Source: Patescibacteria group bacterium (GTDB taxonomy: Bacteria; Patescibacteriota; Patescibacteriia; Patescibacteriales; UBA12075). Taken from it: 64,000 bases of DNA. Where the stretch lies: contig JAHILH010000001.1 of the NCBI GenBank assembly GCA_018897195.1, positions 92,565-156,564 on the forward strand, read 5' to 3'. Position 1 is the first letter of the stretch. The number at the start of each line of letters is the position of its first letter. Made by a program: the position numbers and the translations under genes. The notes below the pieces were generated by a model. That model was not told where the DNA came from, did not search any database, and was given only the letters and a program-made list of their open reading frames with translations. Shown in pieces: positions 15,676 to 60,138 of this stretch.

Positions 15676-16134
15676 ATGGAAGATCAAATTATTACACAAG
15701 AGGGTTATGATAAGCTGAAGGATGAGTTGGATCATTTAAAAAATTTTAAAAGAAGAGAAATTGCGGATAGAATTCAAAAGGCCAAGGATATGGGCGACTT
15801 GAGTGAAAATGCCGAGTATTCTGAGGCTAAAGACGCACAGGCCTTCAATGATGGCCGCATTGCAGAATTAATGGCGATGTTGAAGAATTTAACCGTAGTC
15901 GAGTCAACTGAACATCATGATTCTATTGGTATGGGCTCGAAAATTGTAGTTAAGTCAGATGGCAAGGAAAGAGAGTTCATGATTGTAAGTTTTAATGAGG
16001 CTGATCCGATTAATGGCAAGATTTCAAATGAATCACCGTTGGGTAAAGCGTTTATTGGTAAAAAGAAAGGCGCGGTTGTGATGGTGCAGACTCCGAAGGG
16101 GGCAAAGGAGTATAGGATTGAGAAGATTAAGTAG
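15676..16134 (+). CDS. greA: transcription elongation factor GreA
   Basis: Start moved to ATG 15676 (MEDQIITQEGYDKLKDELDHLK...); DLSENAEY motif; 152 aa. Confidence 0.9.
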   Translation: MEDQIITQEGYDKLKDELDHLKNFKRREIADRIQKAKDMGDLSENAEYSEAKDAQAFNDGRIAELMAMLKNLTVVESTEHHDSIGMGSKIVVKSDGKEREFMIVSFNEADPINGKISNESPLGKAFIGKKKGAVVMVQTPKGAKEYRIEKIK

Positions 16135-26989: not shown

Positions 26990-28408
26990 ATGAAAAATAA
27001 ATTTTATATTACAACCCCGATATATTACGTGAATGCCCAGCCACATATTGGACATACCTATACGACTGTGGCCGCAGACGTTTTAGCGCGTCATCATCGC
27101 TTAATTGGTGATGAGGTTTTCTTTTTGACTGGAACGGATGAACATGGAGCCAAGATTCAACAGAAGGCGGATGTCGCTGGTAAGGATCCTAAGTTTTTTG
27201 TCGATGAGATTGTGGCGTCTTACCACAAGGCCTGGAAAGAATTAAGTATTTCCAATGATAAGTTTATTCGCACTACTGATGAGAATCATAAATTAGCCGT
27301 ACAAAATGCTTTGCAAAAAATGTATGACAAGGGTGATATTTATTTGGATAAATATGAAGGCTTGTATTGTACTGGTTGTGAACAATTTAAGAATGAAAAA
27401 GATTTAGTAGGAGGACTTTGTCCGGATCATAATACTGAACCGGAAAAAATGTGTGAAGATACTTATGTTTTTAAAATGAGCAAGTATTCGGATAGGTTGT
27501 TGCAAAAAATAAAAAGCGATGAATATAAAATAATTCCAGTTGAGCGTAAGCATGAAATTGTAAATTTTTATGAAAAAGAGGGTCTTAATGACATTTCTTT
27601 TTCACGAAAAAATGTAAAATGGGGCATTCCCTTGCCCTGGGATACATCTCATACAGCTTACGTTTGGTCTGATGCTTTTTTGAATTATTTAACCGGATTG
27701 GGTTGGGATGGTGTCGACGGAGCCCCGGATATGTTCCCACCAGAAGTACAATTAATGAGTAAAGATATTTTACGCGTGCATACAACGATTTGGCCAGCAA
27801 TGCTTCTGTCGCTTGACATGCCTTTGCCAAAACAGCTTTTTGTACACGGCTTTTTCTTGGTAGATGGGCAAAAAATGAGTAAATCAATTGGGAATGTAAT
27901 TGGGCCATCTGAACTGATAGCAAAATATGGAGTTGATGCGTCACGATATTTGATAATGAGCTCAATAGCAATGGGGCGAGATGGTGATATTGGTTGGGAA
28001 AAATTTGATGATAAGTTTAATGCTGATTTAGCGAACGGTCTTGGCAATCTCGTGGCGCGGGTATCAAACATGTTGGAGAAGGGCGAGGTGGAAGTGGCGA
28101 TAGTGGCGAATTCTGATCAAGAACTAATTGATAAATTCAATGTTAATATTGATAATTTCTTGTTCAATGAAACTTTGTTACTCTTGTGGGATAAGGTGAG
28201 AGAGAGTGATGAATATATTAGCAAGACAACGCCGTGGAAGATAAAAGAAAAGGATGAGCTAAAGAAGGTTTTGGAACCTGTGGCGCAAAATATTTTGAAT
28301 ATTGCGGAATTATTACAGCCTTTTATGCCCGAGACGGCGAGTAAGATAATTGCTCAATTTAGCGAGAAGCAAATTAAGAAGGGTGAGGCATTATTTCCGC
28401 GACTTTAA
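26990..28408 (+). CDS. metG: methionyl-tRNA synthetase (short form)
   Basis: HIGH (PHIGHTYT), KMSKS (QKMSKSIGN), Zn knuckle CTGCEQF...CPDH. Confidence 0.92.
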   Translation: MKNKFYITTPIYYVNAQPHIGHTYTTVAADVLARHHRLIGDEVFFLTGTDEHGAKIQQKADVAGKDPKFFVDEIVASYHKAWKELSISNDKFIRTTDENHKLAVQNALQKMYDKGDIYLDKYEGLYCTGCEQFKNEKDLVGGLCPDHNTEPEKMCEDTYVFKMSKYSDRLLQKIKSDEYKIIPVERKHEIVNFYEKEGLNDISFSRKNVKWGIPLPWDTSHTAYVWSDAFLNYLTGLGWDGVDGAPDMFPPEVQLMSKDILRVHTTIWPAMLLSLDMPLPKQLFVHGFFLVDGQKMSKSIGNVIGPSELIAKYGVDASRYLIMSSIAMGRDGDIGWEKFDDKFNADLANGLGNLVARVSNMLEKGEVEVAIVANSDQELIDKFNVNIDNFLFNETLLLLWDKVRESDEYISKTTPWKIKEKDELKKVLEPVAQNILNIAELLQPFMPETASKIIAQFSEKQIKKGEALFPRL

Positions 28409-29424: not shown

Positions 29425-29430
29425 TAATTG

Positions 29431-29501
29431 CTCGGGAATAGGGATTCGAACCCCAATTGACTGGACCAAAACCAGCTGTCTTGCCTTTGGACGATTCCCG
29501 A
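29431..29501 (-). tRNA. tRNA-Gln (anticodon UUG)
   Basis: Reverse complement folds as a cloverleaf. Acceptor TCGGGAA/TTCCCGA with the U1-A72 pair typical of bacterial tRNA-Gln; anticodon loop TTTTGGT (TTG); T-arm GGGGTTCGAATCCCT; no encoded CCA. Confidence 0.85.
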
Positions 29502-57445: not shown

Positions 57446-57488
57446 ATACACCCACCGTTACTAAGACTGCGGCGCGGTAGTGAAAAAT

Positions 57489-58427
57489 ATGACAAAAAAG
57501 AATTTAATTTTAGGAGGCGTATTAGCTGTTTTGGTTTTGTCAGCGTATATTTTTAATGGTCCTTTTGCGGACTGGAAAAAAAATTTAAACCGACCGAAAA
57601 ATTTTGTGTCCGGATTTCAAGCGGGCGATATTGATAAGATTGATATTGAGAAAGATGGTAAAAAAATTAATATTGAAAAGGTTGATGTGGCCGTTGGAAG
57701 CTCTACTGAGCAAAAATGGAAAATTTCCGGCACTAAGGATTTTTATTTAACCAAGGATGCGGCTGATAAAATCACAACCTCAATTAGAGAGTTGTTGGCG
57801 GCAAAATTGGATTTGATCAGTGAAAATAAGGATAAGAAAAAGGATTTCGAGGTTGATGATAATGGCATAAAAGTGTCTTTGAAAAAAGGGGACAATGTGG
57901 TAACTGATTTTGTTATTGGTAAAATGACAAGTGATTATGCTGGCGTCTTTCTCTCAAAGAACGACCTTGATAGGATTTATTCTGTAAAAATTATGGCTTT
58001 AAATTTTGCTTTTTCCGAGGATAATATTTATGATAAGGCTATCTTTAAGATTGCGGCCGACAAGGTTAGTAAAATTAGGTTTCAATATCCAGGCCAAGAA
58101 TTTATTATTGAGAAGAAGAGTGACCAGTGGACTATCACTAAGCCAAAGCCATCCGCAATTAATAGAGCTAAGGTGGACAGTGTAGTTAATTTATTAGCTG
58201 ATTTAACAGCAGCTGAAATTCCAGCTCAAACTTTTGAAGGAACCGGATTGGAAAAACATGAAATCATTGTGCAAGTAACAGGTGATGGTATTGATGATAC
58301 GATTATCGTGGGTGGTAAAAATGATAAAGGTCTGTATTATGCCAAGACGGGTAATTCAGACAATATCTATTTAATTAGCAAGGAGAATAGGGATGCGTTA
58401 AATAAAAAAATGCAAGATTTAAAATAG
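57489..58427 (+). CDS. DUF4340-like protein (usual partner of GldG systems)
   Basis: N-terminal TM; position directly after the GldG module. Family call is from context and my recollection of the sequence style. Confidence 0.5.
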   Translation: MTKKNLILGGVLAVLVLSAYIFNGPFADWKKNLNRPKNFVSGFQAGDIDKIDIEKDGKKINIEKVDVAVGSSTEQKWKISGTKDFYLTKDAADKITTSIRELLAAKLDLISENKDKKKDFEVDDNGIKVSLKKGDNVVTDFVIGKMTSDYAGVFLSKNDLDRIYSVKIMALNFAFSEDNIYDKAIFKIAADKVSKIRFQYPGQEFIIEKKSDQWTITKPKPSAINRAKVDSVVNLLADLTAAEIPAQTFEGTGLEKHEIIVQVTGDGIDDTIIVGGKNDKGLYYAKTGNSDNIYLISKENRDALNKKMQDLK

Positions 58428-58441
58428 TTATGTTTTTTTAA

Positions 58442-58473
58442 AAAGACGCTCGCTGGAATGAGCGTCTTTTTTA
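58442..58473 (+). terminator. intrinsic terminator
   Basis: AAGACGCTC / GAGCGTCTT stem followed by T6. Confidence 0.85.
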
Positions 58474-58495: not shown

Positions 58496-58525
58496 TTGAC
58501 TTACTGCTCCAATGTGTGCTAATAT
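58496..58525 (+). promoter_or_regulatory. glyQS promoter
   Basis: TTGACT (58496-501), 18 nt, extended -10 TGcTAATAT (58517-25). Confidence 0.6.
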
Positions 58526-58545
58526 ACTTATATATTGATAAAATA

Positions 58546-58699
58546 ACCAAAAGAGATCGGCACTTTTGGTAAAATTGAATAAAAAGGTGCTCCGACCTTA
58601 AGTTGGAGAAACTAGATGGAACCGCGGGGTTAATTAAATGCTTCGTTCTAGTATTCTGAGAATTTTTATGATTTTTGAATATTGGAACGAGGTTTTTTT
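58546..58699 (+). promoter_or_regulatory. glycine T-box riboswitch leader (compact form)
   Basis: Hairpin ACCAAAAG-AGATCGGCA-CTTTTGGT with GGC-A in the loop. Stem III CTCCGAC/GTTGGAG. T-box AACTAGA-TGGAACC-GCGGGG, with ACTAGA pairing to TCTAGT (58647-52). Competing terminator 58641-58692 plus T7. Confidence 0.78.
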
Positions 58700-58734
58700 G
58701 TATGAAAAAAATAATTATTTTAAATAAAAAAGAT

Positions 58735-60138
58735 ATGACAGAAAAAAAAGAAAATAGTATAGATAAAATTGTTTCACTGGCAAAACGGCGCGGTTTTGTG
58801 TTTCCGAGCTCGGAAATCTATGGTGGTTTTGCCGCGATTTATGACTATGGTCATTATGGTGCTTTGTTGAAAAACAATATTCGTGATGCGTGGTGGAAAG
58901 CAATGGTGCAGTATCGTGATGATGTGGTTGGATTGGATAGTGCTATTTTTATGCATCCGATGACCTGGAAAGCGTCGGGCCACGTTGATAGTTTTGATGA
59001 TCCTCAAGTTGATTGTCGCAAGTGCAAGAACCGAATGCGCGCTGATCATTTGTTGGAGGAATTTGGCATTAATGCAGATAAACAAACTTTAGATTTTTTA
59101 AACACAGAACTTGATAAATTACGTGCTGATAAAAAGTTGAAATGTGTTTCTTGTGGTTCAGTTGATCTAACCCCGGCAAAACAATTTTCTTTGATTGTAA
59201 AATCAAATCTTGGTTCACCTACGAATGAATTGTCGGAAGAGAATGTTGTTTATTTACGACCAGAAACTTGTGGTGGTATTTATTTGGAATATAAAAATAC
59301 GGTAGATTCAACACGTGTGAAATTACCATTTGGCATTGCGCAAGTCGGTAAAGCCTTTCGAAACGAAATCGTGGCGCGACAATTTATTTTTCGCACACGC
59401 GAATTTGAACAAATGGAAATGCAATACTTTTTACACCCCGATCAAATGGAGGAAAAATTTGAAATGTGGAAGCAGATTCGTTGGGATTGGTATATGGATT
59501 ACGGCATGGATATGGATGAAATTCGTTGGTATAAGCACGAAAAATTGGCGCACTACGCTTCGGATGCTTATGATGTTGAATATAATTTTAAATCATTGGG
59601 AGGATTTAAGGAAATTGAAGGTATTCATGCGCGTGGTAATTGGGATTTGTCACAACATAGTAAATTTTCCGGAGCTGATTTGTCTTATTTCGACGACAAG
59701 ACGAACGAACGATTTATTCCGCACATCATGGAAACATCAGTTGGTTTAAATCGTTTATTTTTGATGTTTTTGGACAAGGCATACACGGAAGAAAAAATTG
59801 GCGAAGATATTCGAACTGTATTAAAATTTGATTATCGATTAGCGCCTGTAAAAATTGCAATATTTCCTTTAATGAAAAATAAGCCAGACTTAGTGGCAAA
59901 GGCGAAAGAGGTTTATAGTCAATTAAAAATGAAGTGGCAATGCGAGTTTGACGATAATGGCAATGTAGGCAAACGCTATCGTCGTCAAGATGAAATAGGA
60001 ACGCCATTTTGCGTGACAATTGACTTCGACACGGTTGAAAAGGATAATACTGTAACAGTACGCGATCGTGACACGATGGTACAAGTGAGGGTTGCAGTGG
60101 ATGAATTGGTTAATTATTTTAATGCAAAATTCAATTAA
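58735..60138 (+). CDS. glyQS: glycyl-tRNA synthetase (alpha2 type GlyQS)
   Basis: Start moved to ATG 58735 (MTEKKENSIDKIVSLAKRRGFVFPSSEIYGG); class II motifs FRNEI..R..FIFRTREFEQME; C-terminal anticodon-binding domain. Confidence 0.92.
   Translation: MTEKKENSIDKIVSLAKRRGFVFPSSEIYGGFAAIYDYGHYGALLKNNIRDAWWKAMVQYRDDVVGLDSAIFMHPMTWKASGHVDSFDDPQVDCRKCKNRMRADHLLEEFGINADKQTLDFLNTELDKLRADKKLKCVSCGSVDLTPAKQFSLIVKSNLGSPTNELSEENVVYLRPETCGGIYLEYKNTVDSTRVKLPFGIAQVGKAFRNEIVARQFIFRTREFEQMEMQYFLHPDQMEEKFEMWKQIRWDWYMDYGMDMDEIRWYKHEKLAHYASDAYDVEYNFKSLGGFKEIEGIHARGNWDLSQHSKFSGADLSYFDDKTNERFIPHIMETSVGLNRLFLMFLDKAYTEEKIGEDIRTVLKFDYRLAPVKIAIFPLMKNKPDLVAKAKEVYSQLKMKWQCEFDDNGNVGKRYRRQDEIGTPFCVTIDFDTVEKDNTVTVRDRDTMVQVRVAVDELVNYFNAKFN

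Follow-up and report, generated by a model that had tools for sequence, protein, structure and literature searches.

A probable minimised T-box riboswitch with an apical-loop glycine specifier upstream of glyS in a Patescibacteria genome

The 64,000-nt stretch of DNA considered here (hereafter the window; positions 92,565 to 156,564 of contig JAHILH010000001.1 in assembly GCA_018897195.1, a Patescibacteria group bacterium) contains a glycyl-tRNA synthetase (GlyRS) gene, glyS, at 58735-60138, preceded on the same + strand by a conserved leader of about 160 nt (58540-58699) that carries the elements of a T-box in compact form, with about 105 nt from its hairpin to its antiterminator. A preliminary description had proposed a very compact glycine T-box with the GGC specifier in a terminal hairpin loop, and all of the elements it listed are present at the places it gave; the Rfam T-box family RF00230 is the top local match, and R1, a covariance model of related leaders, matches at 71.8 bits. 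Judging from sequence and its conservation, this leader is probably a working and naturally minimised T-box riboswitch that controls glyS through transcription attenuation. The gene itself had been named glyQS, a name that has to be corrected: the 467-aa translation, with Pfam domains tRNA-synt_2b and HGTP_anticodon and homologues named glycine--tRNA ligase, is that of a single-chain alpha2-type enzyme. Its best matches are in Patescibacteria (Candidate Phyla Radiation, CPR) genomes at 58-74% identity, and an identical protein in NCBI comes from a 'Candidatus Parcubacteria bacterium' (assembly GCA_018895855.1).

The first structural element is an 8-bp hairpin, P1, at 58546-58570, in which ACCAAAAG (58546-58553) pairs with CUUUUGGU (58563-58570) in both the minimum-energy and the centroid fold. 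Its 9-nt apical loop, AGAUCGGCA (58554-58562), presents the glycine codon GGC at 58559-58561, complementary to the anticodon GCC and followed by a purine, A58562. The cognate tRNA-Gly would, as is general among bacteria, carry a GCC anticodon and U73. A single-stranded, A/U-rich linker of 14 nt follows (AAAAUUGAAUAAAA, 58571-58584), in which no helix, Stem II, S-turn or pseudoknot was found, and then the purine string AGGUG (58585-58589), which fits the RRRxG motif defined 5' of Stem III (PMC7583486). Stem III and its flank occupy 58590-58610, with a stem CUCCGAC/CUUAA/GUUGGAG (58590-58608) in the folds and the conserved AA after it. The antiterminator is composed of helix A1 (ACUAGA, 58611-58616, with UCUAGU, 58647-58652), the 7-nt T-box bulge UGGAACC (58617-58623) and helix A2 (GCGGGG, 58624-58629, with CUUCGU, 58641-58646; G-U wobble at its base), all placed by alignment to the Rfam T-box model and to R1. 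The segment AACUAGA-UGGAACC-GCGGGG...CUUCGU-UCUAGU (58609-58652) aligns to RF00230 with high posterior probability, and the only exact TGGNACCGCG in the window lies inside the antiterminator (58611-58652).

An intrinsic terminator completes the leader (58641-58699), with a hairpin at 58641-58692 and U7 at 58693-58699 in the minimum-energy folds. Since its 5' arm (58641-58652) is the 3' half of the antiterminator, the two folds are mutually exclusive, as had been claimed. The terminator hairpin alone is worth -23.3 kcal/mol, and the leader folds to -48.1 kcal/mol in the terminator form versus -25.4 kcal/mol in the antiterminator form, so the default state would be OFF, as in other T-boxes. The minimum-energy fold of the whole leader consists of P1, Stem III and the terminator and is 5.4 standard deviations more stable than shuffled sequence. 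A simple terminator scan gave nothing: it admits loops of only 3-8 nt and so passes over this long hairpin, which folding reveals.

Searches with covariance models separate the part of the leader that is canonical from the part that is not. RF00230 scores 33.3 bits here (E 7e-6), against a gathering cut-off of 93 bits, and inspection of Stem I in this alignment, as the preliminary description had advised, shows Stem III and the antiterminator well matched while 86 Stem I positions are replaced by 2 nt and the specifier hairpin is forced onto the Stem II columns. We rejected the literal reading of that forced placement, in which the hairpin would be a Stem II, since it has no S-turn (GAA...AGUA) and nothing upstream is fit to be a Stem I. 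As judged from these alignments, a T-box core is present and a canonical Stem I is demonstrably absent. At gathering thresholds Rfam reports only a tRNA-Gln in the whole window (a lone tRNA-Gln(UUG) on the minus strand at 29430-29501), and the T-box is seen only in the local E-value search. R1, built from seven leaders with the window excluded, aligns to 58549-58652 over all of its 105 positions (1-105/105) with 71.8 bits and E 4.6e-15, its only match in the 64 kb. Applied to the other 21 Patescibacteria glyS loci, it found no further compact glycine leader. The compact relatives score 31-43 bits against RF00230, among the matches listed, and are thus invisible to standard annotation with its cut-off of 93.

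Comparison of leaders among related genomes, also advised in the preliminary description, yielded 13 further leaders of the same design from Patescibacteria genomes and metagenomes, making 14 distinct leaders together with the window. They share the short hairpin, a single-stranded linker, RRRxG, Stem III, AA, the UGGAACC antiterminator and a terminator; RRRxG-like strings occur in 11 of 11 leaders compared, and a terminator with U5-8 in all 14. Three were found among 24 Patescibacteria species-representative glyS loci as a T-box sequence just upstream of the gene (L003, L014, L019), and the closest GlyRS homologues added L228/L229 (89% identical), L230 (86%) and L231/L232 (81%), with no leader at two further close homologues, L233 and L234. 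The remaining leaders (L096, L098, L106, L112, L172, L184, L197) came from a metagenome scan whose pattern demanded a GGCA at a distance of 45-75 nt upstream of the T-box; most of its 120 matches were chance occurrences in GC-rich genes, and about 20 were real leaders. The same kind of scan over viral contigs gave 24 matches, all chance in coding sequence. Ten of the 13 relatives demonstrably precede glyS; of the other three, the contigs of L096 and L098 end before the gene and that of L184 covers the GlyRS N-terminus only. MAFFT alone misaligned Stem III and the variants with 8-nt loops, and the comparisons below therefore use manual segmentation and a model-based alignment.

In L096 (4465-4550) the A2 loop holds 43 nt, including a G/C-rich hairpin (CCCCCUCCC...GGGGGAGGG), and the loops at the same place are 41 nt in L014 and 24 nt in L197. 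In three relatives a small open reading frame (ORF) lies between the T-box and glyS: at 2596-2966 in L019, where it encodes an uncharacterised, roughly 120-aa protein, at 604-1143 in L231, where it encodes a PDDEXK_3 protein, and in L112, where about 670 nt separate the T-box from glyS. In these three the leader would control a two-gene operon.

The P1 loop is conserved as (A)GAUUGGCA while its stem varies. Five leaders have the loop AGAUUGGCA, the window and L228 share AGAUCGGCA, and L230, L096 and L231 have AGAGUGGCA, AGUUUGGCA and GAUUGGCAG, respectively; two leaders read AGUGGCAY, and one each CCUGGCAA and GAUUGGAU. The stem, meanwhile, carries the compensatory substitutions AAAG/CUUU, GGG/CCC, AGAG/CUCU, GGGG/CCCC and CAGGU/AUCUG. 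In a model-based alignment of 11 leaders, which was fitted to the model and hence leans towards it, 95.2% of the cells hold standard pairs versus 78.4% after column shuffles (0 of 500 reach the observed value), and sliding the partners by 1-3 columns leaves at most 58% paired. Pairs changed on both sides account for 5/5 modelled pairs of the hairpin and 6/6 of Stem III, in which 98.5% of cells are paired. Manual segmentation gives 100% pairing within sequences for both the hairpin and Stem III, and 77% and 59%, respectively, across sequences.

GGC-A (or GGA) stands at the same loop position in all 14 leaders, a count in which the presence of GGCA is by construction for the leaders from the pattern scan, which required it, but its position in the loop is not. 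Six leaders were reached by way of the GlyRS protein, with the RNA unconstrained, and five of their loops hold GGC-A, the exception being L014 with GGA-U. By the classical argument that a loop triplet matching the amino acid of the downstream synthetase is the specifier, the identification of this GGC as the specifier is supported, as the preliminary description had it for the 8-bp hairpin with its 9-nt loop, and a threonyl-tRNA synthetase leader in the same genome, taken up below, presents ACC-A in the corresponding place. We also considered reading the loop as AUC/AUU (Ile) or GAU (Asp) and rejected this, as the AGUGGCAY variants lack these triplets and the gene is glyS. The discriminator of tRNA-Ile is A73, so the isoleucine reading would also leave the UGGA bulge a misfit.

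What bounds the leader on its 5' side is an intrinsic terminator of the upstream gene, which encodes a DUF4340 domain (57480-58427). This terminator lies on the + strand at 58445-58472, with the stem GACGCUC...GAGCGUC at 58445-58466 followed by U6, and in the local Rfam search its hairpin and U-run were also matched as the terminator part of several small RNA models. Downstream of it, a consensus scan finds a sigma-70-like site at 58496-58525 on the + strand, with a -35 of TTGACT (58496-58501), an 18-nt spacer and a TG-extended -10 of TAATAT (58520-58525), matching 9 of 12 consensus positions. From this site we infer a transcription start near 58532, about 14 nt before the hairpin. Promoter-like sites end 3-30 nt 5' of the hairpin in 10 of 11 related leaders; in L230, for example, a TTGACA-17-TATGAT promoter has its -10 end 7 nt before the hairpin, with a terminator just upstream. 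The window and L228, whose GlyRS are 89% identical, are near-identical from 58540, 6 nt 5' of the hairpin, through the U-run, and unrelated upstream of that point; within the leader they differ in the A2 loop, in compensatory changes in Stem III and in a few single-base changes in the terminator arm.

Together, the upstream terminator, the promoter-like site and the conservation edge at 58540 leave no room for a K-turn and a long Stem I. The preliminary description had reached the same view for the K-turn, the AG bulge and the distal platform, and had named a longer canonical Stem I further upstream as the finding that would overturn it; the end of similarity to L228 at 58540 and the promoter-like sites that adjoin the hairpin in 10 of 11 leaders speak for its view. 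No consistent GA or K-turn motif was found across 11 leaders, and no arrangement of C-stem, 3-nt bulge and GA-AG recurs. Some flanking helix can be drawn under the hairpin in L003, L098, L112, L172, L184 and L014, differing in position, asymmetry and sequence, and the K-turn therefore seems to be absent or unrecognisable. Across the leaders the linkers (18-34 nt with the purine string counted in) vary and are unconserved and unstructured, so that there is no Stem II or pseudoknot.

At the 3' end of the leader, the U7 of the terminator ends 35 nt 5' of the start codon at 58735. The NCBI protein (478 aa) begins instead at the ATG at 58702, 2 nt past the terminator U-run. L228 retains the ATG at 58735 and lacks that at 58702; on this comparison glyS is probably annotated 11 codons too long in NCBI, with ATG 58735 as the true start. 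No Shine-Dalgarno sequence was found before either codon.

A second compact T-box leader in the same genome precedes thrS. It lies in L225 at 15904-16120, about 640-860 nt past the right end of the window (roughly 64640-64850 in window numbering), and scores 35.9 bits against the Rfam T-box model. Behind a TTGACA-17-TATAAT promoter, it carries an apical hairpin UAUGG-CCACCAA-CCAUA whose 7-nt loop presents the threonine codon ACC followed by A, then an extra hairpin, UUCC-AUUC-GGAA, with a conserved CUAAGU; a helix CUGCUU/GAGCAG encloses the specifier hairpin and this extra hairpin/CUAAGU, and the leader goes on with Stem III, a UGGAACC bulge and a terminator. Two other leaders, L157 (loop CUACCAA, also before thrS) and L088 (loop CCACCAA), match L225 in the CNACCAA loop, in CUAAGU and in a GAUUG motif on the 5' side of the hairpin. 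In the threonine leaders, unlike the glycine ones, the stretch from the specifier hairpin to Stem III still holds an extra hairpin and the conserved CUAAGU, in parallel with the rule that only glycine T-boxes dispense with Stem II.

A different compact glycine T-box is present in four uncultured 'Bacilli bacterium' metagenome contigs (L093, L164, L165 and L193), in the gene order dgkA-cdd-era-recO-leader-glyS and with a GC content of about 28-32% around the leader. Here a lower stem AUGAU/GUCAU carries a hairpin of 3-5 bp with the apical loop CUUGGAAA (a GGA specifier) or CUGGCAA, and Stem III and the antiterminator follow directly; both a distal Stem I and a Stem II are missing, and Rfam gives scores of 39-42 bits. 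These leaders appear to represent a parallel reduction in another small-genome lineage.

Elsewhere in the window, the methionyl-tRNA synthetase gene (26990-28408) begins 5 nt after the preceding ORF and has neither a leader nor a T-box; T-box control in the source genome is therefore confined to some synthetases, being seen for Gly and Thr and not for Met. The + strand carries nearly all long ORFs of the window (1-64000). With a positive GC skew of 0.15-0.29 in every 4-kb bin, the window lies on one replichore with a strong gene-strand bias.

If the leader works as a T-box, RNA polymerase starting from about 58532 would by default be halted before glyS by the terminator at 58641-58692 and its U7. 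Uncharged tRNA-Gly(GCC) would pair through its anticodon with the GGC in the apical loop of the hairpin at 58546-58570, and its free NCCA end (U73-C-C-A) with the UGGA of the T-box bulge; the purine string of Stem III would then clamp the NCCA-UGGA duplex, stabilising the antiterminator (58611-58652) and allowing read-through. Glycyl-tRNA would be sterically excluded at the discriminator, as in all T-boxes. Since the discriminator half is canonical, sensing of the 3' end and the switch itself should work as in T-boxes of solved structure (PMC7583486). The tRNA would be held by two contacts only, at the anticodon and at the 3' end, with a flexible linker of 18-34 nt between them. Up to five pairs are conceivable, as U-GGC-A and U33-G34-C35-C36-A37 of tRNA-Gly(GCC) are complementary, and the strong G-C codon-anticodon helix, its extension and the loop purines (AGA) could together make contact with the tRNA elbow dispensable.

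We regard it as evenly balanced whether Patescibacteria have in this way a two-contact T-box that acts co-transcriptionally with only an apical-loop codon and a 3'-end discriminator, a design at which the Bacilli lineage would have arrived independently. If they do, the loop context (A-G-A-U-U before GGC and A after it) would stabilise the interaction in cis, either by extending the codon-anticodon helix to U33/A37 or by lining its minor groove with loop purines. Elbow docking, Stem II and the K-turn would then all be dispensable for a terminator-type T-box, and none of the natural tRNA-sensing switches known would be as small as this one, which measures roughly 105 nt from its hairpin to its antiterminator.

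Several points weigh against the view that the leader is a functional minimised T-box. Disabling the elbow-binding platform compromises function in model glyQS T-boxes, the platform has been called essential for transcriptional T-boxes, and a short Stem I without Stem II barely binds tRNA (all PMC7583486); given these published requirements, regulation by the leader may be weak or may need a helper factor. The distribution is patchy, with leaders at 3 of 24 species-representative glyS loci and at 3 of 5 close homologues. The loop of L014 departs from GGC-A, the presence of GGCA in six of the 14 leaders was imposed by the search pattern, although its place in the loop was not, and a search of the window and of 40 related loci turned up no tRNA-Gly gene.

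The low affinity expected of a short Stem I on its own (PMC7583486) would also suit a T-box that senses the 3' end only, the discriminator reading the charging of UCCA ends while the hairpin adds stability, causes a pause or binds a protein. No other part of the leader is nearly as well conserved as the discriminator, and the glycine and threonine leaders of the source genome have the same UGGA bulge. Yet leaders with identical bulges could not tell amino acids apart unless the anticodon were contacted too, the loop stays constant as the stem covaries, and a specifier, unlike a generic stabiliser, predicts what is seen, GGC or GGA before glyS and ACC before thrS; we think such a mechanism unlikely. 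Much the same doubt, and if anything a little more of it, attaches to a ribonucleoprotein variant in which a protein or another RNA supplies the elbow or anticodon contact to a minimal RNA. The published requirements are difficult to square with a T-box that has lost the elbow platform as well as Stem II, K-turn-binding proteins are already suspected helpers in Firmicutes (PMC7583486), and the small ORFs between T-box and glyS in L019, L112 and L231 could be read in this light. There is, however, no conserved partner gene, the neighbours vary among loci and the window has no such ORF, and glycine T-boxes function in purified, protein-free systems (PMC11404447).

That the leader is a decaying relic, a T-box stripped of Stem I that now acts as a constitutive partial terminator in a shrinking genome, would fit a host from a reduced-genome lineage and the scattered occurrence among Patescibacteria, but is very improbable when the same design recurs across lineages whose GlyRS are only 51-60% identical, when compensatory changes keep both the hairpin and Stem III, and when a second leader of this design stands before thrS. 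We give least credence of all to a canonical T-box with a long Stem I further upstream and a wrongly called promoter. The promoter is only a consensus match at 9 of 12 positions, and L228, the closest relative, has no clear promoter beside its hairpin; but the upstream terminator at 58445-58472 leaves about 70 nt, promoter included. Nor does Rfam detect a Stem I, the likeness to L228 breaks off 6 nt short of the hairpin, and the 10 of 11 leaders already mentioned have their promoter-like sites right next to it.

Taken as a functional T-box, the glyS leader is a new architectural form of this riboswitch, undescribed in the literature that we searched, in which we found no description of a glycine T-box without a distal Stem I and no paper linking T-boxes with CPR bacteria, an absence there not being proof of novelty. 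Among the unusual glycyl T-boxes of a 2024 survey, K-turn loss and a gain of Stem II are reported, but nowhere the loss of a distal Stem I (PMC11404447). The T-box database TBDB was built with RF00230, and its short-Stem-I model was applied only to Actinobacteria and to RF00230 hits (PMC7778990). The compact leaders, at 31-43 bits, expose this blind spot in annotation. According to a review of the field, transcription-terminating T-boxes need the distal Stem I platform, which hastens the capture of tRNA ahead of the polymerase's arrival at the terminator, and a truncated Stem I is viable only with a Stem II and pseudoknot that stabilise the codon-anticodon helix (PMC7583486). A conserved, covarying family with neither elbow platform nor Stem II, yet with clear terminators, would be a natural counter-example to both generalisations. 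A natural tRNA sensor of such small size is also useful for engineering, and for understanding the steps by which the T-box mechanism was assembled, or was trimmed in reduced genomes.

The nearest known system is the canonical glycine T-box of glyQS/glyQ leaders (Bacillus subtilis, Geobacillus kaustophilus, Oceanobacillus iheyensis; RF00230), with which the Patescibacteria leader shares the regulated function and the GGC-A specifier, the lack of Stem II and of the IIA/B pseudoknot, a Stem III flanked by RRRxG and AA, a UGGA bulge for U73, an A2 helix that opens with G-U, and the terminator/antiterminator switch. The likeness extends to the specifier loop, where in both GGC-A leads straight back into the helix and, on the 5' side, the helix gives way to an AGA(G/U) string. 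Unlike the canonical form, the Patescibacteria leader is without all of Stem I above the specifier, that is, the S-turn internal loop, the AG bulge and the distal loop, which jointly dock the tRNA elbow, so that its specifier sits in an apical rather than an internal loop; it also has no recognisable K-turn, scores 33 bits against a cut-off of 93, and belongs to a host among the Patescibacteria, not the Firmicutes. Glycine T-boxes were already known to do without Stem II; the GGC:GCC duplex is considered sufficiently strong by itself (PMC7583486). In streptococci and staphylococci, glycyl T-boxes can lose the K-turn or take up insertions in the antiterminator (PMC11404447; PMC4574755), and the 43-nt A2-loop sequence of L096 is reminiscent of the staphylococcal stem Sa insertion, but all of these streptococcal and staphylococcal forms keep a full-length Stem I with its distal platform.

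The preliminary description had likened the leader to the ultrashort Stem I of actinobacterial ileS T-boxes, and the comparison is apt. The differences it drew hold as well: Stem II is absent, there is no pseudoknot either, and a terminator with its U-run stands in for a Shine-Dalgarno sequestrator. As far as the account of Sherwood et al. 2015 given in PMC7583486 goes, the ileS T-boxes of Mycobacterium and Nocardia likewise have a short Stem I, an apical specifier and no elbow platform. The same account has them act on translation, by sequestering the Shine-Dalgarno sequence, where the Patescibacteria leader has a terminator with U7, and need the K-turn, the S-turn in Stem II and the IIA/B pseudoknot for their A/U-rich AUC helix, none of which is found in the Patescibacteria leader. 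They also serve another amino acid in another phylum. The Patescibacteria leader thus lacks the defining feature of each known type, the long Stem I of the canonical form as well as the Stem II/pseudoknot and translational control of the ileS type.

A further comparison lies outside the T-boxes. Pairs of tRNAs with complementary anticodons form loop-loop complexes, and the likeness to the leader is that here, too, a triplet in a hairpin loop would pair with an anticodon loop. The threonine leaders (CCACCAA, CUACCAA) and the Bacilli-type glycine leaders (CUGGCAA) have 7-nt loops that resemble anticodon loops in their C-Y-NNN-A-A form, whereas the loop in the window has 9 nt, with three extra purines on its 5' side, so that the analogy is one of mode and not of family membership. 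With the complementarity of U-GGC-A to tRNA-Gly(GCC), these loops suggest that a leader could hold its tRNA in a loop-loop complex of the kind that such tRNA pairs form.

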